From Candidatus Saccharimonadales bacterium (lineage in GTDB: Bacteria; Patescibacteriota; Saccharimonadia; Saccharimonadales; 2-12-FULL-41-12), in the NCBI GenBank assembly GCA_041600715.1, contig JBFIJM010000001.1:192387-256386 (forward strand): a stretch of DNA of 64,000 nucleotides, written 5' to 3'. A model generated the notes under the pieces. That model ran no database searches. It was not told where the DNA came from and was given only the letters and a program-made list of their open reading frames with translations. The translations under genes and the position numbers were made by a program. Of the stretch, positions 963 through 50,561 are shown one piece after another (within the stretch, counting starts at the first letter, position 1; every line of letters starts with the position of its first letter).

Positions 963-978
963 TGTGATACAGATCACA
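963..978. promoter_or_regulatory. perfect palindrome TGTGATACAGATCACA (TGTGA-N6-TCACA, CRP-family-type operator)
   Basis: Read directly. It lies in the divergent intergenic region between 591..902(-) and 1069..2079(+). The -10-like TGTAAT at 956-961 ends 1 nt before it. The extended match TTTGTGATACnnATCACAGAATG is shared with the site at 8263. Confidence 0.55.
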
Positions 979-1068
979 GAATGGGCTTGAATATGAATTA
1001 TTTGAGGAGTATAGTAAAAAATTGTTTAAAATTACTAAGCCACATACAAATCTAGAAAAAAAGGTGTT

Positions 1069-2079
1069 ATGAACGAAGGATATCCCATAATGAATGATAG
1101 CATTGACGAGCAAGTGCGCCCTAGCGTTGACTACGGTGTAATTGCTGACGAAGCAAGACAACAACACATACAGGAGCGAGCTACAGAATTAAACGAAAAA
1201 GATCGTGTGAGGGGCGATCTTATTCGCGTTGCTAGCATGAGCGACCTTGCGACAGGTGCTGAGTGGGCTGGAGATATTAGCAAAAACGGTGCAGGTTCGC
1301 TCAACGCGAGACAAGAAGGGCGCTATCATCACTTCATAAAGTGTTCTGTCGTAAATACTGCAGAAGGTGGCCAGGTGGGCTGTATGGATGGTCGGATACT
1401 GACATTGCTCATGTTACTTGGTCCCAAAATGGCTAGTGGAACTCACGGGAATGCCATACGACTAATGCTTGCAACTGTTGCGGACCCATACGAAAAACAG
1501 CTGAACTACAGAGACGCATTTAATGTTATGGCAGACATTGACCAAAAGTACGGCTTTAAGTCAGGGACTCATGCTCTAGATCAGTGTGGTGCACAAAAAT
1601 TTGCTCCTTACGCTATACAAACAGTCGCAACACAAGGAAAGATGGTTTCTGGTGCTACTAAGACTTTTTTGGGCTCGGTGGGTTATACCTATAATCAGGA
1701 AAAGCAATCTGGTCTTATTGTTGGCGCAAAACAACTCATTGGCTTACCTGAAAGTGATAAAGCTACTCAGGTTTTAACTTCCAGAAATGCAACAGCATGC
1801 CCGAACTTACCTAAATCTCATAAAGAAAAATCAATCGTTGTATTCATGGATCACGACGTAACGCTAGACAATAATCATCTTGTAAAACTTACTACAGAAG
1901 AACTTGGCATCGAGGCGCAAGCGTTTGGGTACTCTTGGGGATATCATCTTAAGATCGCCCAGGAGCTTGGTGGGTCACTTGGTGATTACTATCTGCACTC
2001 CGTTGCTTCCCAAGATGTCCCTGTTCTCACACGCCTCACCGACGGATCTTTAGATATACTGGCTTACAAGAAGAACTAA
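1069..2079 (+). CDS. hypothetical protein (336 aa) with CxDxR ... HxxxxCGA motif pair
   Basis: Long ORF with GCMDGR and, about 60 residues later, SGTHALDQCGAQK. This is reminiscent of, but spaced differently from, the beta-carbonic-anhydrase zinc ligand motifs. Function not assigned. Confidence 0.6.
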   Translation: MNEGYPIMNDSIDEQVRPSVDYGVIADEARQQHIQERATELNEKDRVRGDLIRVASMSDLATGAEWAGDISKNGAGSLNARQEGRYHHFIKCSVVNTAEGGQVGCMDGRILTLLMLLGPKMASGTHGNAIRLMLATVADPYEKQLNYRDAFNVMADIDQKYGFKSGTHALDQCGAQKFAPYAIQTVATQGKMVSGATKTFLGSVGYTYNQEKQSGLIVGAKQLIGLPESDKATQVLTSRNATACPNLPKSHKEKSIVVFMDHDVTLDNNHLVKLTTEELGIEAQAFGYSWGYHLKIAQELGGSLGDYYLHSVASQDVPVLTRLTDGSLDILAYKKN

Positions 2080-5000
2080 ACCGATAGATCTTTTATGAAC
2101 TGCTTACTGCCGGACAGAGTTTGATCGTAGGCAGTTACGTCCGGTAAATCTAGTGTTTGAATTATGTTCCATACAGCATTAATTAACTGTTTCATCTCGG
2201 TTTCCTCTGTAGAGTCAAAGTCTATGAGAAGTGGTTGCTTAATTTCATTACTTCCAGTGCTTGAAGGTTCTATGAACTCGAGTCTGGCCTCTATAACCGA
2301 ATAATCCCGAAAGCTGTGGCTACCTTCGATAAGAAGCTTGTAAAAGTATAATTGTTGTTTGTATTTTAACGCTTTGATACTATTGTCCCACTTGCTAAGC
2401 GGTGAACCAGTTTTGTAGTCTGCGATTTTTATAGTTTTGTTAATCGTATCAATTTCTAAACGATCAATTTTGCCACTTAAGCGCGCGTTGCCTACAATAA
2501 CTCCTTCATTATAGAAATTCACTTCTGTTTGAGCAGTTTGTTTAAACATGCCTTCTCTTGCAATCAGATATTTTTGTAAAGTGTTTCTACCTTTGGCTCT
2601 AGAATGATCACGGTCAGAATCACTCATGTAGCGCCTCTTAAGCTGATAATCGAACTGTTTTAAGACGTCTTGAATACTGGTTATTTTCCCTGCATTGCAT
2701 TGGTTTTGATACCACTCAAGCGAATTATGGATAGCGGTTCCGTATTCTCCACTTACACTCGGAGCTTGAGGGAATCTGAGTAAAGTTTGTACAAGAAATG
2801 TTTCAGGACCTCCGTGCTCGAGGTCTATGAACGAATTTAGGTGTGTAGGGCTCATTTGGTAGCGTTTTAGTCGATCTTTTAGCAGGCTCCTAAAGTCTGC
2901 AGGTAATTTAATCTGACCAGCTTGCCATAAAGTCTCTATGTCTTCTGCTAAATCTTCAGGTTTAGCCGACTCCTTAATGATATTCTGGGAATGTTCAGGT
3001 AAGTGGGCTGATATACTTCCGTTTTCGCTAAGATATTTAAGAGGCGTAGTGCTTTTGCCACTATCTTTATTACTGTGTGAGGTTATGTATAAAGCATGCT
3101 TTGCCCGTGTAATTGCTACGAAGAATAGTCGTAGGCGTTCATCATTGCTCGACCCGACATAACGGATATGACTTAGATTGGCTGGTAGACTCAGTTTATT
3201 ATTCCCTCCTCTACTTGCGCTACCCCACACATCATCATGTGCTTGCAGAATGAATACATGTTCAAACTCTAAGCCCTTTGCTTTATAGGCAGTCATTAAC
3301 TGAACTGACTCAGTTTTTTGGGCAATCGGATGAATATTTGTAAGTGTTGCATCACCTGCTTCGTACATAGAAAAAAAGTCCAAAAAGTCCTTTATGCTTA
3401 GTTGATTCTCTTGTGTTAACTGATAATCTCGTAGCTTTGTGCGTATAACACTAAGGTGTGAGATTGCTTCGTAATACTTAAGGGCATTTTCAGTACGGTT
3501 TTTGGGCTCAAAGTAGTAGCTTTTTAGTGGTGCTTCTAGTTTGTCCTCCCCATTAATTACAGGGATAGTTCCTATAAGTTTGTCTAATGTAATCTCAAGT
3601 GGTTCGGCAGTAGCAGTGCTCGCAACGGATAGATAAAATAACGTAGCTTTTGCAGTTGAGTTTGCTTCAAGTGCAATCTCGGGCCACTGCCTTTTTTCGT
3701 CATAGGAGCTAAACTGCCAATTAATCTTCCATACTTCTTGTGCTGGTATCTTCCAAAATGGTAGTGAGAGCACCAACGGAAAATACTTGTTAATAGCTGG
3801 CCTGTCATTGTTGTTCAACGCTTGTATAAGTTCCGCACAGAGACGAATCCCTTGAACAATCTCTGTTTCTAAAATATTCTCCCTCTTTTCATAAGAGATA
3901 GGAATTTTATTTTTGTGCATGAAAGGCACAATATTCTCTAAAATCTTATGTTTTGGCGCTAGTATGGCAATTTCAGTTGGGTTTATTCCCTCATCTACTA
4001 GTGTCCGTACTTTATCAGCAACCCAGGAGTACTCACTGGCTTGTGCTATAAATTCATGTCTTGCGATAGTAGCTTGTTCTGGCAATGCTTTTGATTCAGC
4101 CACGAGCACTTTATTTATATTAGAAATCTGAGCATGAAGACGGTCTTCGATTTGGCCGGCAATGCCGTGAGCGACATGTAGAATATCTGCGTGAGAACGG
4201 TAGTTACTCAATAGATTAACAATAGTAACACCAGAGAATGTTACTAGGAATTCTTTCATGTTTCCAATGTTAGCCCCCTGGAAAGCGAATATCGCCTGGT
4301 CGTCATCCCCTACAGCCATAATATTGGGACGTCCTTCATGAACTGGATGGTTTGCAATCTGCTTTACCAACTCGAACTGTGAAGGGTTGGTATCTTGAAA
4401 CTCATCAAGCAAGATATATTGGTATCGTTCTTGCAAGTTGTATCTTAACTCGTCGTTTTTGTTAATACCTTCTATTGCGCGTAGGATCATGTCATCAAAA
4501 TCATACGAAGCCTGGGCTTGTAAGTGTTCTTGATACTTCTGATAAATATTTGCTAACTCTGTCAATTTATAACTTTTTTGTGCGTCTGTAAGTGTAAACT
4601 TATCGTTCTCATCTTTGTGTAGCCATTCATTCTTCCATTTTGTAAGTGGTGTAGGAGAACCAGTATCGTGTGATTCTTGATGAGCTTTCTGTAGCGCAAT
4701 GGTAGCTTGGTTACAGAGTTCGCCTTTTAGAAATTGCAAAGCGGTTAGTAGCGCATCATACTGAGCGAGTTTTTGAGCTTTTTTTGAAGATATGCCTCCA
4801 GCATTATTAACAATACTGTCTAGAATGGGCTGAGCAGACTTGATTGATAAAAGGTTGTCATTAGCCAACTTCTTTAGTGATTCAGGTGTAATGAGGTTTT
4901 GCTTTAGATCACTTATGGTATTCACAACACTTTTTATATAGTATCGAGCCCCAAGAAGAGGGCTGTCAAAAGGTAGCTTACTGATTATTTCACTTACAAT

Positions 5001-5387
5001 TTGAATCTGAGATAGTTCGTCTATTGGTCTTTCTAGGCGTACATCATCTGACCGGTCGATGCTAATTGTCTGGAAGTAGTCTGAATACTGTTTGATAATA
5101 TCACTACCAAAACTATGATAGGTGCTGATTGTTACATCGTATGCGTCATCCCCAATAAAATTTCTTAGACGCTCTCGCATGTTTGTTGCACCGCTTTCGG
5201 TAAAAGTCAGACATAATATATTACGAGCCTCAATGTCAGTCTGGTCAAGAATATGGGCAACACGAGCACTAAGGAGTTGAGTTTTTCCTGTCCCCGGCCC
5301 CGCTATTACTAATACTGGCCCATCGATAGCCTCGACGGCCTGTCTTTGCGCAGGATTCAACTTATCCAAATAACTAGCATCACTCAT
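2076..5387 (-). CDS. UvrD/PcrA-type superfamily 1 helicase fused to a C-terminal PD-(D/E)XK (RecB-like) nuclease
   Basis: 1103 aa. Walker A GPGTGKTQ, helicase motifs (LLDEFQDTN, VGDDDQAIFAFQGA, NYRS, TAYKAKGLEFEHVF, FFVAITRAK) and a C-terminal GKIDRLE...IADYKTG...QQLYFY nuclease motif set. Confidence 0.85.
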   Translation of the reverse strand: MSDASYLDKLNPAQRQAVEAIDGPVLVIAGPGTGKTQLLSARVAHILDQTDIEARNILCLTFTESGATNMRERLRNFIGDDAYDVTISTYHSFGSDIIKQYSDYFQTISIDRSDDVRLERPIDELSQIQIVSEIISKLPFDSPLLGARYYIKSVVNTISDLKQNLITPESLKKLANDNLLSIKSAQPILDSIVNNAGGISSKKAQKLAQYDALLTALQFLKGELCNQATIALQKAHQESHDTGSPTPLTKWKNEWLHKDENDKFTLTDAQKSYKLTELANIYQKYQEHLQAQASYDFDDMILRAIEGINKNDELRYNLQERYQYILLDEFQDTNPSQFELVKQIANHPVHEGRPNIMAVGDDDQAIFAFQGANIGNMKEFLVTFSGVTIVNLLSNYRSHADILHVAHGIAGQIEDRLHAQISNINKVLVAESKALPEQATIARHEFIAQASEYSWVADKVRTLVDEGINPTEIAILAPKHKILENIVPFMHKNKIPISYEKRENILETEIVQGIRLCAELIQALNNNDRPAINKYFPLVLSLPFWKIPAQEVWKINWQFSSYDEKRQWPEIALEANSTAKATLFYLSVASTATAEPLEITLDKLIGTIPVINGEDKLEAPLKSYYFEPKNRTENALKYYEAISHLSVIRTKLRDYQLTQENQLSIKDFLDFFSMYEAGDATLTNIHPIAQKTESVQLMTAYKAKGLEFEHVFILQAHDDVWGSASRGGNNKLSLPANLSHIRYVGSSNDERLRLFFVAITRAKHALYITSHSNKDSGKSTTPLKYLSENGSISAHLPEHSQNIIKESAKPEDLAEDIETLWQAGQIKLPADFRSLLKDRLKRYQMSPTHLNSFIDLEHGGPETFLVQTLLRFPQAPSVSGEYGTAIHNSLEWYQNQCNAGKITSIQDVLKQFDYQLKRRYMSDSDRDHSRAKGRNTLQKYLIAREGMFKQTAQTEVNFYNEGVIVGNARLSGKIDRLEIDTINKTIKIADYKTGSPLSKWDNSIKALKYKQQLYFYKLLIEGSHSFRDYSVIEARLEFIEPSSTGSNEIKQPLLIDFDSTEETEMKQLINAVWNIIQTLDLPDVTAYDQTLSGSKQFIKDLSV

Positions 5388-5421
5388 CTATATATAGCGT
5401 ACGGGTTAAAGCCTAAAATAA

Positions 5422-6669
5422 CTAGACTTTTAATAGTTCTTCATCTGATAGATATTTCTTAGCCAAGTCTGTAAATACGGCGTTTGTCCATCCAAAACCT
5501 ACTTGGGGCGGATACACGCCATGAGCTGGGTCGGCGTGAATATCCGTAACGTTATAGGCTTCACGGAATACGCCATACTCTTTAAAGTATTGAAGGTTAG
5601 TATTAATCCATCTCCGTGCTATTTGCTCGGCTTTTTCATGATAGCCATAATTAGATAAAGCCTCTGTTACTATCCATTGTAATGGAGCCCAGCCATTAGG
5701 ATATGCCCACTGATGAGCAATCATGCGTGCGATTTCATTTTCGTTGCTAGTAGTCGTACTGAGTCCGCCCTCGTACATAAAATTATCTAGATTAGCGACA
5801 ACACGCTCAGCCTGTTCTTGAGTAGCGACCCCTGCCCAAAGAGGATATAAGCTTGCAAGTGACCATATATCGGAATGAGCTCCTGCCACATAATCTAGGT
5901 CAAAATAAAAACCTTTTCTGTCGTCCCACATTTCCGCATTCATTGTCTGGGCACGTAAAGCACCCTTGCCTCGCCATATTTCAGCGGTGTCACTATCTCC
6001 GAGAATATCGTATGTTTTAGCAAAGTCTAATTCGTACTTATGAAGCAATGAATTGAGATCAATCGGAACATAAGATAAACAGTTGCCGTAAAAGCGTGTA
6101 GTCATGTCCCATCCGGATTCGCACTCTGCAAGATCGTCGAGCACATTAATATCGTAATAACGACTTAATCCTTTATAGATATTTCTACGGCTAGGCTGAA
6201 TGTCTCTCAACCAGACGTTATTGTATTCGCGCTCAGCAATCTCCATACGCTCCCTTAGCCAGTTTGTATCCTTTTGGCAGTGCTCGTATATATCCATAAT
6301 ATAACTTGTTAGTAAGGGCGGTTGAGATCTGCTTGTGAAGTAGAACCTGCTGGCATTTGGAATGATATGGAAACGCTTATATAGAAAAAGCAAGTTCTCG
6401 AGCATTCCTTCGGCCAACTCATGTCTGCCTGATTGTAGTAGCCCCTGAGCTGTAAAATAACTATCCCAGTAGTACATTTCTTCAAAAACAAACCCATTTT
6501 GAGGTTCTGCGCTCGGAACAATGTACGGAAAAGGTAGCCCTATAAGTGTACCGTCATCAAATTCTTGTGATTTAGTTAAGGCTGGCCATGTTAACTCAAT
6601 ATGGGCGAAAGCACCGGCAATTTCGTCGGCGTTAAAACGGATTGTTTGATTTATGGGAGCGTTAAGCAT
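5422..6669 (-). CDS. trehalase, glycoside hydrolase family 37 (cytoplasmic type, no signal peptide)
   Basis: 415 aa. EEMYYWDSYF and RSQPPLL match trehalase signature 1 and the conserved core. QWAYPNGWAPLQW matches signature 2 (QWDxPxxWxP). Confidence 0.8.
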   Translation of the reverse strand: MLNAPINQTIRFNADEIAGAFAHIELTWPALTKSQEFDDGTLIGLPFPYIVPSAEPQNGFVFEEMYYWDSYFTAQGLLQSGRHELAEGMLENLLFLYKRFHIIPNASRFYFTSRSQPPLLTSYIMDIYEHCQKDTNWLRERMEIAEREYNNVWLRDIQPSRRNIYKGLSRYYDINVLDDLAECESGWDMTTRFYGNCLSYVPIDLNSLLHKYELDFAKTYDILGDSDTAEIWRGKGALRAQTMNAEMWDDRKGFYFDLDYVAGAHSDIWSLASLYPLWAGVATQEQAERVVANLDNFMYEGGLSTTTSNENEIARMIAHQWAYPNGWAPLQWIVTEALSNYGYHEKAEQIARRWINTNLQYFKEYGVFREAYNVTDIHADPAHGVYPPQVGFGWTNAVFTDLAKKYLSDEELLKV

Positions 6670-6724
6670 ATCCAGTAATTGTAAAGAGACGTCTGTCTCA
6701 CTGCAAATGGAAATTCATAAAATC

Positions 6725-6740
6725 TGTGACAATTTTCACA
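6725..6740. promoter_or_regulatory. perfect palindrome TGTGACAATTTTCACA (TGTGA-N6-TCACA)
   Basis: Read directly. It lies between the trehalase start (6669, minus) and the small ORF at 6858 (plus). The -10-like TAAAAT at 6718-6723 ends 1 nt before it. Confidence 0.5.
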
Positions 6741-6857
6741 GCCGGTAAATAAATGTGAAGTTAACATAAGAAAGTTCAGCTTAAGTATGTTTTTATGGCT
6801 GTGGTTTAGGCAGTAACTGCTTAAGCTGGACACAGGCAAATAAAGGAGGGTATATTT

Positions 6858-7037
6858 GTGAAATCAAACGCACCAAAACAATATCGCGCGGATCAGCTTG
6901 CTAAAAAAATTAGCAGTCTAAATAAATCCCAAGATGAAGAACGTCATGGTCGAAAAATAAAGCGTCATTTACATGATTTCCGAGATATTTCAGCGCAACA
7001 ATTGCTGACAAACAACAACGCCTACGATATTGCATAA
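6858..7037 (+). CDS. small basic hypothetical protein (59 aa, GTG start)
   Basis: Below the ORF-track length cutoff. A strong SD AAGGAGG (6844-6850) lies 7 nt before the GTG. It reads VKSNAPKQYRADQLAKK...AYDIA-stop and is followed by a clean intrinsic terminator. Confidence 0.45.
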   Translation: MKSNAPKQYRADQLAKKISSLNKSQDEERHGRKIKRHLHDFRDISAQQLLTNNNAYDIA

Positions 7038-7067
7038 CTGACAAAACTTGTTGAGCTCTTAAACTGG

Positions 7068-7100
7068 CCGGACGTACTCCATCACGTCCGGTCTGTTTTT
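7068..7100 (+). terminator. rho-independent terminator
   Basis: Stem CCGGACGT (7068-7075) pairs with ACGTCCGG (7084-7091), 8-nt loop, then TCTGTTTTT. Confidence 0.7.
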
Positions 7101-7117
7101 GATTTATAATGGTCTAG

Positions 7118-7657
7118 ATGGATAAAGATATAGGCGAGATAATTTTGAGTGGTGGCGTAGGAACAATGCCTACTGACACAATTTATGGGATGGTTTGCTC
7201 AGCAATGGACACTGGTGCTGTAAAAAGGATATATGACTTAAAATCTCGAGCTCCTTATAAACCATTAATAATTTTAGTATCTAACTCCTCCCAGATAGGA
7301 GATTGCGGTGTCTCACTGGACAATTTGAATTTGCATATTTTAGATGAAAAGTGGCGCCGATCTCCTAGTAGCATAATATTGCCTGCAGACAATACTCTTC
7401 AACACGTACATAAGGGGTTAAATACGATAGCACTTAGAATTCCCTACTCAAAACCAGAACTATTAAAGCTACTGTCCATTACAGGGCCAATTGTCGCAAC
7501 AAGTGTAAATATCAGCGGTGAATCACCACTGCTAAACCTAGAAGAGATCAAGCAAGAATTTCCTAATCTGGATTTTTATATAGGCGGTAGGTCAGGTCAG
7601 GTTCCCTCAGCACTTTATAGACTTATTAATGACAGCTTGGAGCCGATTGAGCGCTAG
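7118..7657 (+). CDS. tsaC: L-threonylcarbamoyladenylate synthase (YrdC/TsaC family)
   Basis: 179 aa. PTDTIYGMVCSA matches the YrdC-domain signature PTDTxYG, and the size fits the single-domain TsaC type. Confidence 0.75.
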   Translation: MDKDIGEIILSGGVGTMPTDTIYGMVCSAMDTGAVKRIYDLKSRAPYKPLIILVSNSSQIGDCGVSLDNLNLHILDEKWRRSPSSIILPADNTLQHVHKGLNTIALRIPYSKPELLKLLSITGPIVATSVNISGESPLLNLEEIKQEFPNLDFYIGGRSGQVPSALYRLINDSLEPIER

Positions 7658-8214
7658 TGTCTAGTGCGTACAGCGTTCCAAGCTATCGCACCGATAGAAA
7701 GTAATAAAGCGCTATAAAATCCTAGCTCGCCATATAGTTCTAATTTATAACCTTCATTAAAGTTCAGGACAAAATATGCGACGGCTGTTACGCTATAGGC
7801 TACTACTGATGCTACTGCGGTCAGATAAACCATGCCTTTCTTTGCCAACACAGACGCAACCAAAATTGGTATTACAAATAGTATGACTGCCCTACTAGCC
7901 ATCCCTCTGGTGGTGTAAACATAAAAGGATGCTAAGGCGATATCAGTTGCGATCAATACCCATGCAATACGATGAATTTCTTTAGGGGTATCACTAAGCC
8001 TTGCGATATACCAACACATACTCGCTACAATTATTAGTACGCTTGTAGCAAGCCAGCGTTTAAGTACGATCTCTGGAGTTATGAGTTTACCGGCATCATA
8101 AGCGATAATTTGGGCAGTAAATAACAACCCAATAACGACATGAATTTTACATATGCGAATAAAATTTGAGCGCATATTATTGTGCTGACGTATTTCTGAA
8201 CCCATGTCAAGCAT
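7654..8214 (-). CDS. hypothetical polytopic membrane protein (186 aa)
   Basis: Five or six hydrophobic segments. Overlaps the tsaC end by 4 nt (convergent). A palindromic operator is centred about 56 nt upstream of its ATG. Confidence 0.55.
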   Translation of the reverse strand: MLDMGSEIRQHNNMRSNFIRICKIHVVIGLLFTAQIIAYDAGKLITPEIVLKRWLATSVLIIVASMCWYIARLSDTPKEIHRIAWVLIATDIALASFYVYTTRGMASRAVILFVIPILVASVLAKKGMVYLTAVASVVAYSVTAVAYFVLNFNEGYKLELYGELGFYSALLLSIGAIAWNAVRTRH

Positions 8215-8262
8215 TTAACCATAACTGTTAAACGGGGGTCAAATAAAGCGATTATAATTATT

Positions 8263-8278
8263 TGTGATACTTATCACA
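8263..8278. promoter_or_regulatory. perfect palindrome TGTGATACTTATCACA (TGTGA-N6-TCACA)
   Basis: Read directly. TATAAT at 8253-8258 ends 4 nt before it. Its flanks are shared with the site at 963. Confidence 0.55.
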
Positions 8279-8573
8279 GAATGAAAAGTTATAAGCAAAT
8301 ACACTATAGATACGCACATTTCACAAGAGGTTGCAGGCACAGAAGTCAACGCAGTAATTTGGTCGCTTAGCGTTAGACCCAGCCAATAGCGAAACCGGGC
8401 AACAGAACGATTCTAATCGCCTAAACCCATGGAGTTTTAAGAGTGTGGAGGTGCTCATATAAAGATAACTCAGTGAAAGCAAGATTCGTTCTGGCCGTAT
8501 GTAACCAGAACGGAAGTGCTTAACAAAGCGTAAGTCTTAGAGACACTTACGCAGTAATTAGGAGGAGGGTTAT
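8279..8573 (+). promoter_or_regulatory. long structured 5' leader or candidate cis-regulatory RNA of unknown class
   Basis: About 290 nt without an ORF and visibly more GC-rich than its surroundings. Hairpins CGTTCTGG...CCAGAACG (8487-8512) and GCGTAAGT...ACTTACGC (8528-8552) precede the SD GGAGGAGGG (8561-8569) and the ATG at 8574. Confidence 0.3.
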
Positions 8574-8873
8574 ATGACAGATGCAGCAATGCGAAACATC
8601 ATCGCAGGTGAGTTTCGTGCACTACAACAACGTATGCTTCAACAGTCAGTAACTAAGGCAGATTTAATGAACATGACTGACAGAATACTAGCCGTAACTG
8701 CGACTAGACGAGATCAGGAGTCCATTAGAGCATTAATTGAGGATTTACGATCCGAGGTAAAGAGTCAGCAACAGATGATACGCCAACACTCAACACACAT
8801 AGAATCGCTTAACCAAAATACAAAAAACACCACGAACCAGCTTGGCTCGCTGTGGAGATTTGTCCAGCAGTAA
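8574..8873 (+). CDS. hypothetical coiled-coil protein (99 aa)
   Basis: Strong SD GGAGGAGGG. Heptad-like Q/E/R-rich sequence. A terminator follows. Confidence 0.55.
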   Translation: MTDAAMRNIIAGEFRALQQRMLQQSVTKADLMNMTDRILAVTATRRDQESIRALIEDLRSEVKSQQQMIRQHSTHIESLNQNTKNTTNQLGSLWRFVQQ

Positions 8874-8895: not shown

Positions 8896-8929
8896 AGAGG
8901 ATTTAAATATCAATTTAGATCCTCTTTTT
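8896..8929 (+). terminator. intrinsic terminator shared by convergent genes
   Basis: AGAGGAT (8896-8902) pairs with ATCCTCT (8919-8925), followed by TTTT. On the minus strand it sits just after the VanY-like stop codon and is followed by TATTTT. Confidence 0.55.
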
Positions 8930-11637: not shown

Positions 11638-12495
11638 CTAAGAAAATGTCGTCAGTGATTTGGCGACATTTTTAATTGTAACTTTATAACCTGGTTTTAG
11701 CTTGTAAACTTCACCATCCATTTGCACAGGGACAGAACTAAGCATAGTGAAAACAAGTTCTTTTTCGCAGGTAGCACTTACTTGTTTGAAATGTGCAGTA
11801 GCAAAGAAGTTGAGTAAATTAATCCGTGTTTTATGCTCGTGTAAAGTTAGCCCAAAACAACCGTCGTTTGGACTTATGTTATCGGCTACTGTTAGTGTTT
11901 TTGCCATCTCTGGGATATTGTTCGCCATAAGGCTGTCTACACGTATTTTCTTGTTCCCAATTTGGATCTTAAAAGACTTAAAGTTAAAAAAAGTCTTAAT
12001 TCCTGCCAGCTTCTCTGTAATTAAAGACTTAGCGCCTAGGTTGATAGCTTGGGCAACTTCGGCGCTTACACCGATTCCAATGTAGCTGTGAGCATATTTA
12101 TCTAGAACGATCGATCCCTTATGCTCCGCTGTTAGATGAATTAGATCAATTTTCTTAAATTGCCTTTTGTTTATGCTTTCAGCAACAGGTTGCTTGTATG
12201 CATTACGGTGATGGTCATTAGCATTTCCGCTTGGGATAGTCCCTGCAATTATCTTTTTATTCCCTGCTCTAATTATTCCGTTAATAACTTCGTGGTAACC
12301 GCCGTCCCCGCTTGACGCAACTATAATCATGGGCTTCTTCTGTTTTGCTAAATCGTAAGCGATTTCCTCGGCGTGCCCAGCGTTTTTGGTTGGCACCAAG
12401 ATAGTTTTATCTTGTTTAATTTCTTTCTGAAGTTTTACTGCATTCTTTTTACTGTCACCGGTGCTTTTGGGGTTGTATATAATTGTGACATTCAT
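11638..12495 (-). CDS. diacylglycerol/lipid kinase family protein (DAGK catalytic domain, YegS-like)
   Basis: 285 aa. ASSGDGGYHEVINGI corresponds to the GGDGT..EV.NG motif of the DAGK_cat domain. Confidence 0.7.
   Translation of the reverse strand: MNVTIIYNPKSTGDSKKNAVKLQKEIKQDKTILVPTKNAGHAEEIAYDLAKQKKPMIIVASSGDGGYHEVINGIIRAGNKKIIAGTIPSGNANDHHRNAYKQPVAESINKRQFKKIDLIHLTAEHKGSIVLDKYAHSYIGIGVSAEVAQAINLGAKSLITEKLAGIKTFFNFKSFKIQIGNKKIRVDSLMANNIPEMAKTLTVADNISPNDGCFGLTLHEHKTRINLLNFFATAHFKQVSATCEKELVFTMLSSVPVQMDGEVYKLKPGYKVTIKNVAKSLTTFS
11643..11673 (+). terminator. terminator-like hairpin after the helicase gene
   Basis: AAAATGTCG (11643-11651) pairs with CGACATTTT (11664-11672), then T. It overlaps the 3' end of the convergent lipid kinase gene. 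Confidence 0.4.
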
Positions 12496-12514
12496 AACAG
12501 ACTATTTCATAGCT

Positions 12515-14615: not shown

Positions 14616-14762
14616 TTAAATGTTATTTGCCAATAGATCACTGCTAAATGATGTAAAATAACAGATTGCATTGTAGCAATTTATTACAAGAAATAGAAGT
14701 AGTACAGTGCTAATTAATAAGTGTTACCTCATGAGTGCTTATGTTATGATTTAACTATTACC

Positions 14763-15683
14763 ATGAGCATAAAAACCAAGACTATAATTATTGGCTTGCT
14801 ATTTTTAGGAGTGATGGTGTCGGCAGTGCTGTTCTTTCAGGGCAGTAATATTGCTGTACTTAATCCAAAAGGCACTATTGCGTCACAGCAAAGAGATCTA
14901 ATATGGATTGCGACTGGGCTTATGCTGATCGTCGTATTGCCTGTTTTTGCTCTAACCGGTTACATCTCTTGGAAATACAGATCAAGTAACAAAAAAGCGT
15001 TATATATGCCAGAGTGGGATGGTAGTCGGGCTCTAGAGCTAACATGGTGGGGGTTTCCACTGTTAATCATCGTCATATTGTCGGGGATTATATGGAGAAG
15101 CTCACATGATCTTGACCCGTTCAAGCCAATATCTTCTAATCAACAACCTTTAACTATCCAAGTTGTTGCTATGCAGTGGAAATGGTTATTTATTTATCCA
15201 GATCACAATATAGCCACGGTAAATTTCATCCAGATTCCAGAGGATACACCAGTTAAATTTGAGATAACGTCTGATGCGCCAATGAATTCGTTTTGGATTC
15301 CCCAATTAGGTGGGCAAGTATATGCAATGTCTGGCATGGAGACAAATCTCAACCTTATTGCTAATGAGCCCGGAGAATACGACGGTGTCTCGGCCAATAT
15401 TAGTGGAGAAGGTTTTGCTAATATGCGATTTAAGACAAAAGTTAGTTCGCACGACGACTATTTACAGTGGCTATCTTATGTTAAGCAGTCATCAGATGCC
15501 CTGGACTTTGAATTATACAAATCTCTTGCCGAGCCAAGCGTTCAGGGTGCACCTCTTCTATACAGCTCAGTGGAGCCATTATTATTTAAAGCAGTGCTAG
15601 AAAAGTTTATGCACCCAACCGCAGACTTACGTCAGAATTCAGGTTTGCCAATATTTGAAGAACATAACGAAGGGAGCCACTAA
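14763..15683 (+). CDS. cyoA: cytochrome o (bo3) ubiquinol oxidase subunit II
   Basis: Start placed at MSIKTKT (N-terminal TM). [51 protein letters not shown] closely parallels my recollection of E. coli CyoA. No CuA Cys/His ligands, so a quinol-oxidase type. Confidence 0.9.
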
Positions 15684-15684
15684 C

Positions 15685-17646
15685 ATGTGGGGTCGACTAA
15701 ACCTGGACGCATTACCCTCTGATCCGATCACTATAGGAGGAGCGTTGGGTGCGCCGATGACTGCACTCGCAGTTATTTTAGCTCTTACCTACTTTAAGAA
15801 ATGGAAATGGCTTTATAAAAACTGGTTGACAACTCTTGACCCTAAGAGGATTGGTGTCATGTATCTTATCGTAGCAGTGCTTATGTTATTTAAGGCAGGT
15901 GTAGAAGCGATGCTTATGCGACTACAGCAAGCTGTGGCCTCTGGAAATAACGGTTTTATTGACGCTGAGCATTATCAGCAAATGTTCTCGGCACATGGAA
16001 CGATAATGATATTTTTTGTCGCAATGGGACTTATGTTCGGACTAATAAACTTGATTATGCCATTGCAGATTGGCGCCAGAGATGTCGCCTTCCCCTTCCT
16101 AAACTCAGTAAGTTTCTGGTTGTTCGTTGCAGGTATGCTTTTGATAAATATATCACTAGCTGTGGGGGAATTTTCTGCTGCAGGCTGGCTGGCTTATCCT
16201 CCATTATCAGGGCTAGAATACAGTCCTGGTGTGGGAGTAGATTATTGGATATGGAGCCTTCAGATTGCAGGAATCGGTAGTCTATTATCTGGAGTTAACT
16301 TTCTAGTAACCATACTAAAGATGCGTGCACCAGGCATGACACTTATGAAAATGCCGGTATTTGTGTGGAGTGTCTTGTGTGCAATGGTACTAGTAATTTT
16401 TGCCTTCCCAATACTAACAGGCACGCTTGCAATGCTTTCTCTAGATAGACTTATGGGGATGCATTTCTTTACTGCTGATGGCGGTGGTAATGCCATGATG
16501 TACATAAATCTCATTTGGGCATGGGGACACCCAGAAGTTTATATACTTATATTGCCAGCATTTGGCGTATTTTCAGAAGTAGTAGCCACTTTTGCTAAGA
16601 AGAGACTGTTTGGCTATACATCAATGGTTGTTGCGTTAGGAGCGATTACATTCTTGTCGTTTGTTGTTTGGCTTCACCACTTCTTTACGATGGGAGCAGG
16701 AGCAAATGTTAACGCATTTTTTGGCATAATGACAGCAGTTATTGCTGTGCCAACAGGTGTAAAAATATTTAACTGGTTATTTACTATGTACCGCGGTCGA
16801 ATTGACTTTAAATCGCCAATGCTATGGTTTCTTGGTTTTGTTCTTACCTTCACAATTGGCGGAATGACAGGCGTACTAATGTCGGTACCAGCTATAGACT
16901 TCCAGACGCATAATAGCCTATTCCTTGTTGCTCATTTCCATAACGTGATTATAGGTGGAGTATTGTTCGGTTACTTCTCGGCCATTGTTTACTGGTTCCC
17001 GAAGATATTTGGATTTAGACTCAATGAAGCTCTTGGGAAGGTCGCATTCACTAATTGGATAGTGGGCTTCCTGCTAGCGTTTATGCCACTATATGCGCTG
17101 GGACTTATGGGAGCTACCCGAAGAATAAATACATATGACGCTTCGATGGGTTGGCAATGGTTATTTATAATCTCTGCTATTGGAGTATTATTCATCGGCA
17201 TGGGAGCCCTGACTCAAGTTGCTCAGATTGGCTACAGCTTCTTAAAACGAAAAGAGTACAAAGATCTAACCGGAGACCCGTGGGATGGTAGAACACTTGA
17301 ATGGTCGACGCCGTCTCCTGTGCCGGTTTATAATTTTGCTGTCACCCCAATGGTAGATTCACGTGACGCGTGGTGGGCAGAAAAACTTAGGGCTAAAAGA
17401 TCAGAACAGATATACGAAGATATCTACTTGCCTAAAAACAGTCCTGCGGGTCTGGTTATTGCTAGCTTTAGTTTCTTAATGGGTTTTGGGCTTATCTGGC
17501 ACATGTGGTGGTTAGTAGTTCTCGGAGGGTTAGGCGCAATCGTTACTTTGATAATACGTACTTCAAATGATGATAGCGAATATGTGATCCCGGCAAAACA
17601 GGTAAAACTTATGGACTCAAAATACAGAACACAGGCAGGACTATGA
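15685..17646 (+). CDS. cyoB: cytochrome o ubiquinol oxidase subunit I (heme-copper oxidase)
   Basis: Start at [10 protein letters not shown], right after the cyoA stop, with GAAGGGAG upstream. Long runs match CyoB ([83 protein letters not shown]). Confidence 0.95.
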
Positions 17647-18242
17647 ATAACGAGTTAACAACCATTAAGCACGTTTCAGATCACGACAATATCTCTAAAA
17701 CGACCTTTGGCTTCTGGGTATACTTGATGACAGACTGTGTATTGTTCGCTAGTCTCTTTGCTACCTATGCTGTCTTAAAAAACAATACTTTTGGTGGGCC
17801 ATCAGCATCGCAGTTATTCGAACTAGATTTCGTATTATTAGAAACTGTTCTACTGCTTACTAGTAGCTTTGCGTGTGGCTTAGCGATGTTGTCCGTTTGG
17901 AAACGCAATTCAAGCGCAGTGCTTAATTGGATGGCTGTAACTATACTCCTCGGCCTCGGCTTCCTTTCTATGGAATTGTATGAGTTTACACATCTTGTTA
18001 ATGAGGGTTATAGCTGGGAACGAAGCGGTTTCTTGTCTGCATACTTTACTTTAGTGGGTACACATGGACTACATATAACTGTTGGACTGATTTGGTCAGT
18101 TGTCCTTATTGGTCAAATAATGAAAAGAGGTCTGACATCAGGAGTTGTTAGAAGGCTGACACTTTTTAGTCTCTTCTGGCATTTCTTGGATATTATATGG
18201 ATATTTATTTTCACATTCGTTTATTTACTGGGAGGAGCGTAA
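17643..18242 (+). CDS. cyoC: cytochrome o ubiquinol oxidase subunit III
   Basis: 199 aa with 5 TM segments. [15 protein letters not shown] and [14 protein letters not shown] are conserved subunit III motifs. 4-nt overlap with cyoB. Confidence 0.9.
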
Positions 18243-18243
18243 C

Positions 18244-18630
18244 ATGACTCGACATAAAAGTATTGTGTCTCGACATAAGTTAGTTTCTGCAACTAGTTCT
18301 CAGTATATAAAGGGTTATATTGCTTCGATGGCGATAACAGGCCTAGCTTTCTATCTTGCAATGAACTATTCAGTAAAAGAACCAGAAGTTATTTTATCTA
18401 TTGTTGGGTTAGCCCTAGTCCAGTTAATCGTACAACTACGTTTCTTCATTCACTTAGACCATGAAACCGGAGTAAAATGGAACAAAGTCATCTTTTCATT
18501 CATGGCTCTTGTTGTATTTGTTATTGTCGCAGGGAGTTTATGGATAATGTTCAACTTAGACTATCACCACGAGATGACTCCTCAAGAAACTGAACATTAC
18601 CTTCTTGTGGAAGAAGGATTAAAACCTTGA
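18244..18630 (+). CDS. cyoD: cytochrome o ubiquinol oxidase subunit IV
   Basis: 128 aa with 3 TM segments. Its position between cyoC and cyoE and the GYI.S......AFYL pattern support the call. Confidence 0.75.
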   Translation: MTRHKSIVSRHKLVSATSSQYIKGYIASMAITGLAFYLAMNYSVKEPEVILSIVGLALVQLIVQLRFFIHLDHETGVKWNKVIFSFMALVVFVIVAGSLWIMFNLDYHHEMTPQETEHYLLVEEGLKP

Positions 18631-19490
18631 ACTCTCATATAATCGATTATTACAGGCTTACTAAACCCGGAATTATTAGAGGAAACATAATAGCTTCACT
18701 AGCTGGGTTCTTTCTGGCTTCGCGCGGTGAAATAAACATTCAAAATCTGGTATTTCTTGTCATTGGACTATCTATGGTAATCGCATCTGCTTGTGTTTTT
18801 AATAATATTTTAGATCGCTCATTAGATTCGAAAATGCTCAGAACCCGCAAGAGAGCTATGGTCGAAAAGAGGGTGTCGGTTAAGTCTGGAGTAATCTACG
18901 GTATAAGTCTTGGGTTTGCAGGATTTATAATCTTGGCATGGTTTACAACCGTTCACGCAGTTGTCCTTGCATTTATTGCCCACTTTTTATACGTCTTTGT
19001 ATACGGCTACGCTAAGCGCGTAAGTCACTGGGGCACCCTAGTAGGAGCGTTCCCAGGCAGTTTACCGCCTGTGATTGGTTACACCGCAGTAACGGGCGCT
19101 CTCGATATAATAGCCTTTGGACTATTTATACTACTGTTTGTTTGGCAAATGCCTCATTTCTATGCAATTGCTATCTTCCGAAAGAAAGATTACCAGTCAG
19201 CTGGTATTCCTGTGCTGACAATAGTTAGGGGCAATAAGATTGTTACGAGACGAATACTCTACTATGTCTACGGATTACTTGCAGTCACGCTTTGGTTTGG
19301 ATTTATATCAGGACTTTCTATGCTGTATTTTATACTTTCAGTTACTGTTGTTATTTTTTGGCTTAGGGTAGCTTATAAGAATGCAACTTCAAATGATTTG
19401 CTATGGTCTAAAAAAATGTTCGGAGCGTCTTTAATCGTACTGCTAACTCTGTGTATAGCAATTAGCCTAGATTCGAGCCTCATTAACTAA
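18627..19490 (+). CDS. cyoE: protoheme IX farnesyltransferase (heme O synthase)
   Basis: 287 aa, TTG start overlapping the cyoD stop. UbiA-family motifs NNILDRSLDSKMLRTRKR and WQMPHFYAIAIFRKKDYQSAGIPVL. Confidence 0.9.
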   Translation: MNSHIIDYYRLTKPGIIRGNIIASLAGFFLASRGEINIQNLVFLVIGLSMVIASACVFNNILDRSLDSKMLRTRKRAMVEKRVSVKSGVIYGISLGFAGFIILAWFTTVHAVVLAFIAHFLYVFVYGYAKRVSHWGTLVGAFPGSLPPVIGYTAVTGALDIIAFGLFILLFVWQMPHFYAIAIFRKKDYQSAGIPVLTIVRGNKIVTRRILYYVYGLLAVTLWFGFISGLSMLYFILSVTVVIFWLRVAYKNATSNDLLWSKKMFGASLIVLLTLCIAISLDSSLIN

Positions 19491-21175: not shown

Positions 21176-21820
21176 ATGAAGATAGGTATTGTTGGATCTG
21201 GTGTTGTTGCGCAAAGTTTGGGTAAAGGGTTCGTTGATGCTGGTTACCGAGTAATGCTTGGCAGTAGAAACCCCGATAAAAAAGAACTGAAAGAATGGAA
21301 GAAGAATGCCGGCAAACACGGGCAACTTGGGAGCACTACTCAGGCGGCACAGTTTGGTGAAGTGTGCATTTTGGCTGTAGCGTGGCATGCAGGAGAGGAT
21401 GTTATGGCACAAGTGAGACCAGAACTAGCAGGTAAAATTGTTATTGATGTAACAAACCCGTTGATATTTAACGATGACGCACCTCCTACCCTAGCTGTCG
21501 GGCATACTATTAGTGGAGGCGAAATTGTACAGCAAAATTTACCAGATAGTCACGTTGTTAAGGCATTAAACATTATTAGTCATACCCATATGGTTCAGCC
21601 GAAATATAAATCTGGCACACCAACAATGTTTATTTGTGGTAATAATTCGTCAGCCATAACTCACACATCAGAATTGCTACAAGAGTTAGGGTGGCAAGAT
21701 ATTATTGATCTTGGTGGTATAGAAAAAAGTCGTCTGCTCGAACCTCTGTGTCTGTTATGGGTAGAGTATGGAGTTGCCAGGAATACCTGGGCTCATGCGT
21801 TCGCAGTGTTAGAACGTTAA
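21176..21820 (+). CDS. NAD(P)-binding oxidoreductase (F420-dependent NADP reductase / ProC-like fold)
   Basis: 214 aa. N-terminal Rossmann motif MKIGIVGSGVVAQSLG. Size and pattern fit the NADP_oxidoreductase_coenzyme_F420-dependent family. Confidence 0.6.
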   Translation: MKIGIVGSGVVAQSLGKGFVDAGYRVMLGSRNPDKKELKEWKKNAGKHGQLGSTTQAAQFGEVCILAVAWHAGEDVMAQVRPELAGKIVIDVTNPLIFNDDAPPTLAVGHTISGGEIVQQNLPDSHVVKALNIISHTHMVQPKYKSGTPTMFICGNNSSAITHTSELLQELGWQDIIDLGGIEKSRLLEPLCLLWVEYGVARNTWAHAFAVLER

Positions 21821-23028
21821 CTAGTGAGTGAAAGATCGTCTATGCATAGCGGACAGGACTCTTCTCTATTATTTTCTGCTATGAATCGTTTCGAAGCCTG
21901 AACCCATGGTTCGTAATCATTGTAAGCAATATAATCAGCGATTCTTCGTAGCATCCACCCCATTCGACCGTATATCCTTGCTCGGCCCCAGACTACTGCT
22001 GCCCATTTTGGTCCCGCAGGCATTACGTAGATAGGCTTTTTTGGCCTGTAAGGTAGCGGTTCCTGCTTGTCTGCAAGTCGTTTTAAGTTACTTGCTATAA
22101 ATTTGCCATCATGAAGCGCAGTTTGAGCCATGCCACTATATGGAGTGTCGGCATTATCGCCAAGAACATATATTCCACGTTCAGCCTGAAGAAAAAGATC
22201 AACACGAACTTTCCCGCTAGATGTCAGTTGAAAATTATTTTCTTTGAAAAAACTGTTATTTGCCATACCAGCGGTCCACACAACTGTATGGCTCCGTATG
22301 GGTTTACCGTGAACAATCAGTGCGTCAGCAGTTTGGGCCTGCACAATGGTGTTCAAGTATATTTTCACCCCTTGTTTGCGTAGATTCTTACTAACCGAGC
22401 GAGACACAGATTTAGGCATCCTCGGCAATAATCTTGGCGCTGCTTCGATTAAGTCTATATGAATTTTTTGGTCGGGCAGGTCATGGTACTTACTGATTTC
22501 ACGTATGTATTTTGGTAAAACGCCAGCCAGTTCTATGCCGGTAGGACCACCCCCTACAACGACGTAATTACTATCACGCGTACCATTCTGCAGTAATTGT
22601 GTGTGAAGATGGGCCTTTAGCTTCTCTGCTTCATCTAGTGTTTTTATTCCATATGAATATTCTGACAGGCCCTCTATGCCAAAGTAGTTTGTTTTGACAC
22701 CCAGCGCCAACACAAGAGCACTATATGATATTTTATTACCACGCTTGGTTATTAGTTCTTGTTTGGTTCTATCTACTGATACGGCCGTATCATAGATAAT
22801 CTCAACATTCTTACCTGAAAAAATATTTTTTAGTGGTACATCCGCCACTTCTTTCGATCCACCGGTCGCTGTGTGATAGAGAGAGGGATATACCCTCATC
22901 GAGGGATAATCTGTTACTAGCGTAACTTTTATTTTAGAATGCTTGGATAGTTCTAGGGATGCTTTTATGCCGGCATACCCTCCCCCTGCTACCACTACGT
23001 GTAATTTTTTATTAGACATACTTACCAC
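21817..23028 (-). CDS. ndh: type II NADH dehydrogenase (NDH-2), FAD-dependent
   Basis: 403 aa. Two dinucleotide-binding motifs (VVVAGGGYAGIKA and VVVGGGPTGIELAG) and the GDNA motif region (YVLGDNA). Confidence 0.8.
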   Translation of the reverse strand: MVSMSNKKLHVVVAGGGYAGIKASLELSKHSKIKVTLVTDYPSMRVYPSLYHTATGGSKEVADVPLKNIFSGKNVEIIYDTAVSVDRTKQELITKRGNKISYSALVLALGVKTNYFGIEGLSEYSYGIKTLDEAEKLKAHLHTQLLQNGTRDSNYVVVGGGPTGIELAGVLPKYIREISKYHDLPDQKIHIDLIEAAPRLLPRMPKSVSRSVSKNLRKQGVKIYLNTIVQAQTADALIVHGKPIRSHTVVWTAGMANNSFFKENNFQLTSSGKVRVDLFLQAERGIYVLGDNADTPYSGMAQTALHDGKFIASNLKRLADKQEPLPYRPKKPIYVMPAGPKWAAVVWGRARIYGRMGWMLRRIADYIAYNDYEPWVQASKRFIAENNREESCPLCIDDLSLTS

Positions 23029-38546: not shown

Positions 38547-38882
38547 TTAAGCGACTTCATCATACTCTGCATAAAACCCAGGGTTATCAAATGGCTGAAC
38601 TGCTTCAAATAACAGCTTCTTGTTATCAGTTTCTTGAGTGGATACAGGGGTGACTAAAATTTCAACTACGTGCGCTCTTCCATAATCAGTTATTCTTCTC
38701 CGTTCACCACTTAGATATGTCTCTACTACTGTTTTGCCGATCCTACATAGTTCTAAATCTTCATTTTTGCTCATTATTTCCTTACGCGAGGGAGTGTGGT
38801 GAGACATATCCGGAAACTTAAACCCACTTTTAGACATCTCTGCCTGCCAAGTTGATCTTGAGAACCGATTTGAACTATCCAT
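38547..38882 (-). CDS. hypothetical protein (111 aa)
   Basis: Only ORF in this interval. RBS AAAGGA lies 8 nt before the ATG. It is preceded by an attenuator-like leader. Confidence 0.5.
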   Translation of the reverse strand: MDSSNRFSRSTWQAEMSKSGFKFPDMSHHTPSRKEIMSKNEDLELCRIGKTVVETYLSGERRRITDYGRAHVVEILVTPVSTQETDNKKLLFEAVQPFDNPGFYAEYDEVA

Positions 38883-39064: not shown

Positions 39065-39092
39065 TTGACACACATAATAATGGGTATATAAT
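39065..39092 (+). promoter_or_regulatory. near-consensus sigma70 promoter
   Basis: TTGACA (39065-39070), 16-nt spacer, TATAAT (39087-39092). Drives the 188-aa gene through a leader of about 155 nt. Confidence 0.6.
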
Positions 39093-50507: not shown

Positions 50508-50561
50508 CTTGTTCTCCGTTAACTACTGTATAGTTAACAGTACCATCGGAGGTAACAAGCG

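Follow-up and report, generated by a model that had tools for sequence, protein, structure and literature searches.

Class II activators of the CRP and FNR type bind sites centred at position -41.5 of the promoter, overlapping a -35 element that is weak or absent, and a missing -35 element is typical of activator-dependent promoters; position -61.5 is the classic class I activator position. CRP is told from FNR by its half-site, GTGA as against TTGA, the full half-sites being TTGAT for the FNR type and GTGAA for the Rex type. GlxR of Corynebacterium, Crp (Rv3676) of Mycobacterium, CRP and SdrP of Thermus and SYCRP1 of cyanobacteria have a recognition helix of the form R-E-(T/S), and activation from about -41.5 has been described for several of them. 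Clp of Xanthomonas and Bcam1349 of Burkholderia are CRP-like regulators that sense cyclic di-GMP (c-di-GMP). To our knowledge, transcriptional regulation has hardly been described in Saccharibacteria and other bacteria of the Candidate Phyla Radiation, and a full-text literature search returned no paper combining Saccharibacteria with a transcription factor, a binding motif and a regulon. Here, we analyse a set of TGTGA-N6-TCACA palindromes in a stretch of 64,000 nucleotides (nt) from an uncultured Candidatus Saccharimonadales bacterium (contig JBFIJM010000001.1, positions 192,387 to 256,386), hereafter called the window.

Judged by its sequences, this is a known kind of system, a CRP-type regulon, and the assignment is well supported in a phylum without a described regulon. 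Three perfect palindromes and one that matches at nine of its ten fixed positions stand upstream of the genes p103, p59, p99 and p175, at a near-constant distance from a predicted -10 element. We consider it highly probable that the palindromes are transcription-factor binding sites, and their position in the promoters suggests class II activation.

Palindromes and their conservation

A pattern search over the 64 kb found exactly three perfect palindromes, TGTGATACAGATCACA (site 1, 963-978), TGTGACAATTTTCACA (site 2, 6725-6740) and TGTGATACTTATCACA (site 3, 8263-8278), at the positions given in a first-pass annotation of the window. All three are intergenic, as that annotation had it, in a window of which 8.9% is intergenic, and each is flanked by divergent genes: p103 (minus strand) and p336 (plus) at site 1, a trehalase gene (minus) and p59 (plus) at site 2, and mem186 (minus) and p99 (plus) at site 3. 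By chance, 0.13 perfect sites would be expected per window, and in 100 dinucleotide-preserving shuffles a count of three or more was never reached. The earlier expectation of 0.07 sites, made with an assumed guanine-cytosine (GC) content of 40%, was about right, the computed GC content being 40.2%. Sites 1 and 3 have in common a longer core, also pointed out in the annotation, which proved to be 23 nt long (TTTGTGATACNNATCACAGAATG) and exact at 961-983 and 8261-8283. No sharing was found past this core, nor any direct repeat, longer repeat or mobile-element gene beside the palindromes. The same DNA is present in the Logan assemblies of SRR29257383 and SRR29257392.

Allowing up to one mismatch adds the positions 12484-12499, 39100-39115 and 50492-50507, which brings the number of sites to six where 2.2 are expected. 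Since three of the 100 shuffles also reach six, the three near-perfect variants are not significant on their own. The annotation had listed them as further members of the set; their coordinates are correct, and as a class they do not clearly rise above chance. Taken one by one, 50492 holds up, 12484 is attributed to chance and 39100 is ambiguous.

Close relatives were found through homologues of p336 and p99 on metagenomic contigs, to which we refer by L-numbers. In L030 (p336 77% identical, GC content 45.7%), the orthologues of site 2 (TGTGATATTTTTCACA, L030:7713) and site 3 (TGTGATTGTTATCACA) are again perfect palindromes, with other spacers and with flanks that have diverged, and the orthologue of site 1 (CGTGATATAGATCACT, L030:1963) is changed at the two outermost bases only. 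A further orthologue of site 1, TGTGAGAACTATTACA, lies at L032:9861 on a contig whose p336 is 50% identical. The palindrome also recurs upstream of p99 homologues of 55-61% identity in L039 (AGTGATGAGTATCACG), L040 (CGTGAGCAATATCACA), L042 (AGTGATCAATATCACG) and L043 (TGTGATCAATATCACG), and in the alignment of the p99 upstream regions of six species the GTGA and TATCAC columns are invariant amid otherwise diverged sequence. Orthologous sites are present in six species for p99, in three for p103 and in two for p59; p175 is covered by a homologue in L048.

We compiled twelve sites, namely the three perfect sites and 50492 from the window, three from L030 and one each from L032, L039, L040, L042 and L043. 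Seven columns (G2, T3, A5, T10, C13, A14 and C15) are identical in all twelve, G4 and T12 are kept in eleven and T6 in ten, position 11 is A in nine, and the outermost T and A vary. These columns point to a functional core GTGA-N6-TCAC of GTGAT/ATCAC flavour. The bases G2, G4 and T6 make the specificity CRP-type, neither FNR-type nor Rex-type, and the fact that the stem bases are invariant and never covary favours recognition by a protein over an RNA hairpin. The suggestion that the palindromes form a CRP/GlxR-type cis-regulatory set is thus supported both by this core and by the conservation of the sites, which persist amid diverging flanks at orthologous intergenic positions, in as many as six species.

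A position weight matrix (PWM) was built from the eight sites of other species only, and its scan was limited to the window. The best four distinct positions were 8263, 963, 6725 and 50492, all of them intergenic, so that the comparison of intergenic with coding DNA proposed in the annotation comes out, at the scale of the window, in favour of the motif. Position 50492 ranked fourth among distinct positions with 12.8 bits; 39100 scored 10.8 bits and 12484 scored 9.0 bits or less.

Promoter geometry

A TAnnnT hexamer is present downstream of the palindrome, on one side, at all twelve sites, at a distance of 21 nt in ten and of 22 nt in two, a rule that spans four different genes and seven contigs. 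In the window the distance is 21 nt throughout: TAATAT at site 1 (941 to 936, minus strand, preceded by TGn) and, on the plus strand, TAACAT at site 2 (6762-6767), TACACT at site 3 (8300-8305) and TATAGT at 50492 (50529-50534). Among the orthologues, the hexamer stands at 21 nt for site 1 in L030 (TACTAT) and L032 (TAATGT), for site 3 in L030 (TATACT), and in L039 (TACGAT), L040 (TATATT) and L042 (TATACT); it stands at 22 nt for site 2 in L030 (TAGTAT) and in L043 (TATACT). The background frequency of TAnnnT is 0.035 per intergenic position, or about 0.07 per site when either side may count, which gives a probability of about 2e-5 for the exact offset at all four window sites.

Nothing resembling a TTGACA-like -35 element was found 16-18 nt upstream of the hexamers at the twelve sites. 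If the hexamer is taken as positions -12 to -7, the palindrome occupies -49 to -34 and is centred at -41.5. The 21-nt spacer varies in sequence and is constant in length, as expected for a stereospecific contact between an activator and RNA polymerase; a repressor would not need such constancy. We therefore infer activation in preference to repression. A generic sigma-70 promoter scan, which was not enriched in the window (16 hits versus 21.5 in shuffles), was used only to cross-check individual promoters.

The first-pass annotation had drawn attention to another set of hexamers, those that end 1-7 nt before TGTGA on the plus strand (TGTAAT 956-961, TAAAAT 6718-6723, TATAAT 8253-8258 and TATAAT 39087-39092), and had read them as a repressor-like placement. 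They exist as described, and so do the distances that it gave between the palindromes and the minus-strand start codons, which we measure from the site centres as 68.5 nt at site 1, 63.5 nt at site 2 and 56.5 nt at site 3. The boxes themselves are not conserved at the orthologues of sites 1 and 3: their counterparts at site 1 are TAGTGA in L030 and TTTCGT in L032, and at site 3 the corresponding stretch of L030 carries a deletion of 12 nt. The geometry in which a -10 element immediately precedes the palindrome truly holds only at 39100. The same annotation had allowed for activation of the minus-strand genes, which fits p103 at site 1 and probably does not fit mem186 at site 3, where the spacing varies between species.

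Predicted targets

Site 1 lies between p103 (591-902, minus) and p336 (1069-2079, plus), and its spacing to both flanking promoters is free of gaps in an alignment of three species. On the p103 side, the predicted promoter has an extended -10 element, TGgTAATAT (936-944, minus), 21 nt from the palindrome, which puts the site centre at -41.5 and the predicted transcription start at about A929. The TGG-TAnnnT element and its spacing are kept in L030 and L032, with different sequence in between. The predicted class II target, p103, is a small helical protein without a Pfam match that evolves fast, being 36% identical to p113 of L030. On the p336 side, both hexamers of the promoter TTGAAT-17-TATAGT (987-1015, plus) and their 31-nt spacing to the site are conserved in three species. 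Here the site centre falls at -51.5, and as this promoter has a -35 element of its own, its dependence on site 1 is uncertain.

The p336 product is a conserved protein of a small family (15 representatives) with the invariant residues C105xD107xR109 (a CxDxR motif), H168 and C173 (in a CG motif). Its AlphaFold model has a predicted local distance difference test score (pLDDT) of 88.6, and the best Protein Data Bank (PDB) matches found by Foldseek are the repeats of CDCA1 carbonic anhydrase (E 8.6e-4, probability 1.0, target TM 0.5-0.59), the zeta-class (cadmium) carbonic anhydrase of a diatom. On the strength of this model p336 may be a zeta/beta-like carbonic anhydrase; enzymes of that class have Cys-His-Cys metal ligands and an Asp-Arg pair. 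In L037 and L038, p336 is followed by a gene for a MIP-family channel.

Site 3 lies upstream of p99 (8574-8873, plus), which encodes a conserved 99-aa coiled-coil protein and has its own terminator (8896-8925). The predicted -10 element TACACT (8300-8305) sets the site centre at -41.5 and the start at about A8312, after which comes a conserved box, GCAC(A/G)TTTCA; across the six species the TAnnnT hexamer of the p99 promoter keeps the 21-nt distance except in one, where it is 22 nt. The protein is 86% identical in L030, above the identity of its neighbours, and its nine clusters (55-100% identity) are always found beside vanY.

Between the predicted start and the Shine-Dalgarno sequence, the p99 leader contains a c-di-GMP-II-like riboswitch aptamer (8324-8409, plus). 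The window copy matches RF01786 over the full length of the model with 40.5 bits (E 2.6e-5 for the whole window), below the gathering score of 53.5. The copy in L030 (11419-11503) reaches 51.8 bits, likewise below that score, and the one in L042 (420-502) exceeds it with 55.8 bits; the best match of the L040 copy (857-942) is the GAG variant RF03169, at 41.3 bits for a threshold of 40. RNAalifold on four species gives a P1-P2-P3 fold of 17 pairs, ten of which show compensatory double changes, and the P3 stems are entirely different in sequence between species. The pseudoknot segments read GGUCGC…GCGAAACC, as against GGGCAC…GUGCAACC in the consensus, and retain their complementarity. In its sequence features the aptamer is an intermediate subtype between RF01786 and RF03169, c-di-GMP-II-like in kind. 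When 694 kb of Saccharibacteria loci were scanned with a covariance model made from the four aptamers, no other copy came up. Downstream, a conserved hairpin recognised by inspection (8487-8512, plus) may act as the expression platform; CGTTCTG, which forms its 5' arm, could switch to pairing with the 3' P1 strand CAGAACG (8403-8409). In a literature search, we found no paper tying Saccharibacteria to c-di-GMP signalling and none on the ligand of the c-di-GMP-II-GAG variant.

On the other side of site 3, the predicted extended -10 element of mem186, TGgTTAAAT (8221 to 8213, minus), overlaps the annotated ATG (8214), which makes the ATG at 8205 the probable true start; one of two Logan gene calls, of 183 aa, agrees with it. 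We rejected mem186 as a stereospecific target, the distance between its promoter and the palindrome changing from -64.5 in the window to -52.5 in L030 and about -30 in L039.

Site 2 stands between the trehalase gene and p59, and its centre lies at -41.5 of a predicted p59 promoter with the -10 element TAACAT (6762-6767, plus) and a start at about 6774. The transcript would begin with a leader hairpin (6775-6833, plus) of 19 predicted pairs that is conserved in the two species, window and L030, with an invariant apical part, AUGGCUGUGGUUUAGGCAGUA; the leader had no match in Rfam. The gene itself (6858-7037, plus) encodes a small basic protein 54% identical in L030; a strong Shine-Dalgarno sequence precedes it, and a terminator of its own (7066-7093) follows. 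In L030, the closest relative, a gene for a 695-aa protein with matches to sigma-70 regions 2 and 4 (L030:8079-10166, minus) is inserted between p59 and sua5, and tblastn found no counterpart of it in the window.

The same palindrome is centred at -61.5 of the divergent trehalase promoter, predicted as TTGCAG-17-TACAAT (6678-6706, minus), whose hexamers and 41-nt spacing to the site are kept in L030, a comparison of two species only. The trehalase (PF01204; 5422-6669, minus) is accordingly a possible secondary target, and may be co-activated from the class I position. Its ATG comes 8 nt after the -10 element, which would make the message nearly leaderless. More generally, both trehalase (6667-6683) and mem186 (8203-8221) have a conserved -10 element on the minus strand 7-8 nt before the ATG and no Shine-Dalgarno sequence, and from this arrangement their mRNAs appear to be leaderless or nearly so.

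The fourth site, TGTGATAAGTAGCACA (50492-50507, plus), matches nine of the ten palindrome positions and lies upstream of p175 (50562-51089, plus) with the same 21-nt geometry, which places the predicted start at about 50541. Evidence for it comes from L048, where a homologue of p175 with 45% identity is preceded by TGTGACTAGTATCACG, a TATACT hexamer at 22 nt, a Shine-Dalgarno sequence and an ATG. Among 80 metagenomic p175 loci (39-55% identity), L048 is the only one with a good site in the right place. These sequences support the view that the 50492 site is genuine and that the regulon is restricted to a lineage. The p175 family itself is broad, with at least 238 clusters spread across Saccharibacteria. 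The protein has no Pfam match; its model (pLDDT 75.7, with a disordered N-terminus) finds its best PDB matches in the bacterial pleckstrin-homology (PH) domains 3dcx and 3hsa, and it is predicted to fold as a PH domain of this bacterial kind.

The first-pass annotation had suggested a stress or carbon-status regulon. The firm predicted targets are small proteins of unknown function, not metabolic genes, and their distribution is patchy. Distant relatives keep the order vanY-mem186-sua5-trehalase-uvrD-atpC and have neither p103, p336, p59 and p99 nor the palindromes. In L003, L004 and L018, which are syntenic yet without p103 and p336, p59 and p99, the flanking genes lie about 30-40 nt apart. 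The joint absence of small genes and palindromes from syntenic relatives indicates that the sites travel with the genes, and the members of the regulon behave like accessory cassettes, each with a promoter of its own and, in p59 and p99, a terminator of its own. A comparison of 19 Saccharibacteria genomes based on trehalase (50-65% identical) showed no sites, and as the upstream context differs in these genomes it is uninformative on conservation; among species-representative genomes, the closest trehalase matches were all from Saccharibacteria, at 65% identity or less. Two isolated matches elsewhere were set aside. A perfect palindrome at L017:16555, one in roughly 0.5 Mb of further Saccharibacteria sequence, falls within a TatD-like coding sequence and agrees with chance expectation, and a motif match at L073:1589 falls within a pilin-like coding sequence.

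Remaining near-perfect sites

The palindrome at 39100-39115, TGTGAAAACATTTACA, covers about +1 to +16 of a plus-strand promoter of p188 composed of TTGACA (39065-39070), a 16-nt spacer and TATAAT (39087-39092), and its role is ambiguous. On its minus side, a TATTAT (39079 to 39074) lies 20 nt away, and about 150 nt past this hexamer an intrinsic terminator, GCCTCGGAAAACCGAGG followed by TTTTTT, is found at about 38928-38903 (minus). The terminator is closely followed by the orphan gene p111 (38547-38882), with the L10 leader coming after that gene, and the segment 38895-39099 (minus) could be a small RNA or an attenuator. The match at 12484-12499, over the start codon of the lipid-kinase gene, overlaps the coding sequence and has no -10 element at 20-22 nt on either side; together with its PWM score, this led us to dismiss it as chance.

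Apart from these loci, the window contains genes for a cytochrome bo3 oxidase (14721-19490) and a type II NADH dehydrogenase (21817-23028), as well as ribosomal-protein operons with the L10 leader.

Search for the regulator

The first-pass annotation had supposed that the regulator is not encoded in the window, and our searches agree. Four tblastn queries (E. coli CRP, E. coli FNR, Crp of M. tuberculosis and a Crp-like protein of L053) detected no Crp/Fnr gene in it, and Pfam scans of 20 unassigned window proteins gave no Crp/Fnr, helix-turn-helix or other DNA-binding domain. The 10 kb of DNA beyond the right end hold ribosomal-protein genes. Nor did the window show a cyclase or a GGDEF motif.

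The family does exist in the phylum. A 213-aa protein of L053 (1781-2422, plus) matches PF00027 with 49.4 bits and PF13545 with 39.8 bits, both above threshold, and its gene lies directly upstream of a p175 homologue on the same strand, an arrangement also found in L045 (3-122). By its domains this protein is evidence that the Crp/Fnr family is present in Saccharibacteria, not that it regulates the sites described here. Five FNR-family regulators were also reported in a soil Saccharibacterium (Starr et al., 2018; PMC6031116). We did not retain work on LexA in Patescibacteria as a relevant precedent, as it concerns a different regulator.

Discussion

We hold with moderate confidence that these promoters form a regulon in which a CRP-type factor would activate p103, p59, p99 and p175 from a class II position. 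A single dimeric factor with CRP-type specificity, most probably a Crp/Fnr protein encoded outside the window, would bind all palindromes. At -41.5 the palindrome would take the place of the missing -35 element, and the bound dimer would recruit RNA polymerase directly. The predicted targets are small self-contained units: p103, read on the minus strand from site 1, p59 from site 2, p99 from site 3 and p175 from 50492. Site 2 may in addition aid the divergent trehalase promoter from -61.5. The p99 transcript would pass through the c-di-GMP-II-like riboswitch, and with an activator site and a riboswitch on the same unit p99 would integrate two signals.

Several points weigh against this account. 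Neither the window nor the 10 kb beyond its right end nor the related contigs that bear sites yielded a Crp/Fnr gene, and the L053 protein has the recognition helix RESTAM, not RETVGR, with no matching palindrome nearby. The position -41.5 rests on predicted -10 hexamers, some of them weak (TAACAT, TACACT, TACGAT). The footprint would be no different for a repressor sitting on the -35 region, but such a protein would leave the strict spacing and the missing -35 element unexplained. Orthologous sites are not statistically independent, and most distant relatives have no site (79 of the 80 p175 loci, L037, and L003-L018), which confines the regulon to a narrow lineage.

The most serious competitor is that the palindromes are operators of a dimeric repressor, which would block plus-strand promoters whose -10 element ends 1-7 nt before TGTGA, or would occlude the -35 region. 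The -10-like hexamers do exist, a protein lying over -49 to -34 could repress as well as activate, and 39100, placed 7 nt after the -10 element of a consensus TTGACA-16-TATAAT promoter, occupies a textbook operator position. All the same we regard repression as unlikely, because the upstream hexamers are lost in the orthologues of sites 1 and 3, because the exact 21-nt spacing is kept across four genes and seven contigs where a repressor would not need it, and because the downstream promoters, having no -35 element, would offer little to repress in the absence of an activator. The geometry does not by itself name a protein family, and an activator from outside the Crp/Fnr family, of the LuxR/TraR type or another winged-helix dimer, might act on the palindromes from about -41 or -42. 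The failure to find a Crp/Fnr gene near any site would fit such a protein, as would the narrow lineage, which is common for accessory regulators. Yet agreement with the CRP consensus is nearly complete in the half-site, in the 6-bp spacer and in the A/T-rich flanks, and extends to the G that separates CRP from FNR, and Crp/Fnr proteins do occur in Saccharibacteria; we judge a regulator of another family to be improbable.

Two further explanations seem to us more remote. Rex operators, with the consensus TTGTGAA-N4-TTCACAA, formally fall under TGTGA-N6-TCACA and have the half-site layout seen here; likenesses to Rex half-sites are found in site 2 (…TTTTCACA) and 39100 (TGTGAAAA…), and the window encodes a respiratory chain. 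Rex has A and T at positions 6 and 11, however, where the twelve sites have T in ten and A in nine, the window scan gave no PWM match near its usual targets, ndh or the cytochrome bo3 genes, and as a repressor it would need neither a fixed spacing nor a missing -35 element, all of which makes Rex operators very unlikely. It is more doubtful still that the palindromes bind no protein at all and are chance AT-rich palindromes, RNA hairpins or terminators, or the scars or ends of inserted cassettes. A terminator scan does mark 6741-6724 as a weak hairpin, and the absence of the small genes from syntenic L003, L004 and L018 gives their regions the look of insertions. Against this stand the shuffles, the shortness of the stems (5 bp, invariant and without covariation), the lack of anything to terminate between divergent genes, the absence of a longer repeat or mobile-element gene alongside, and the retention of the sites between species whose proteins are 55-86% identical. 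We give such explanations next to no weight.

Returning to CRP-type activation, the analysis yields concrete regulon predictions: four promoters with predicted starts, a PWM, a strict -41.5 architecture and lineage-specific small-protein targets. As the sites are near-consensus for E. coli CRP, these predictions are open to heterologous testing. The p99 riboswitch further suggests cyclic-dinucleotide signalling in the phylum. One could go on to propose that the regulator is itself a sensor of a cyclic dinucleotide, like Clp or Bcam1349, forming with the p99 riboswitch a two-layer circuit, activation from -41.5 combined with gating by the riboswitch, that would control p103, p59, p99 and p175; we regard this as speculative and rather doubtful. 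Were it true, the Candidate Phyla Radiation would have its first defined transcription-factor regulon and its first circuit of cyclic-dinucleotide signalling, with small, fast-evolving proteins under common control in one episymbiotic lineage of Saccharibacteria.

Comparison with known systems

Among described systems, the predicted promoters come closest to the class II promoters of E. coli CRP, such as galP1, and FNR, in which a site centred at -41.5 replaces the -35 element. They have the same 16-bp TGTGA-N6-TCACA palindrome with A/T-rich flanks as E. coli CRP sites; the p103 promoter resembles galP1 also in its extended -10 element (TGn), and the divergent trehalase promoter at -61.5 resembles a class I promoter. 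They differ from the E. coli promoters in their host, a Saccharibacterium of reduced genome, in serving small proteins of unknown function and not catabolic operons, in having starts that are predicted from hexamers, and in position 10, which is T in all twelve sites (…TATCAC) where E. coli has G.

The TGTGA-N6-TCACA consensus is also that of GlxR in Corynebacterium, Crp (Rv3676) in Mycobacterium, CRP and SdrP in Thermus and SYCRP1 in cyanobacteria. The regulons of these proteins are large and cover central metabolism, whereas here four or five sites occur in 64 kb, all beside small or orphan genes and within a narrow lineage. Rex operators share the half-site spacing and four of the five half-site bases, and differ in the T and A found here at positions 6 and 11, in the activator-like geometry and in the respiratory genes of the window being without sites.

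As for the riboswitch, the p99 aptamer resembles the c-di-GMP-II family (RF01786, clan CL00127) in its full-length match, the covariation of P1-P2-P3 and the complementarity between the pseudoknot loop and the 3' segment. It departs from that family in that the window copy scores under the gathering threshold and in nucleotides of the pseudoknot and junction that differ from the consensus: the UCGC/GCGA pseudoknot is like that of the GAG variant (RF03169), and the AAACC that follows is nearer to the AACC of c-di-GMP-II than to the GAGACC of the variant. The likeness to Clp and Bcam1349, in which CRP-type sites go together with a link to c-di-GMP, runs here through this riboswitch and is offered as a lead only.

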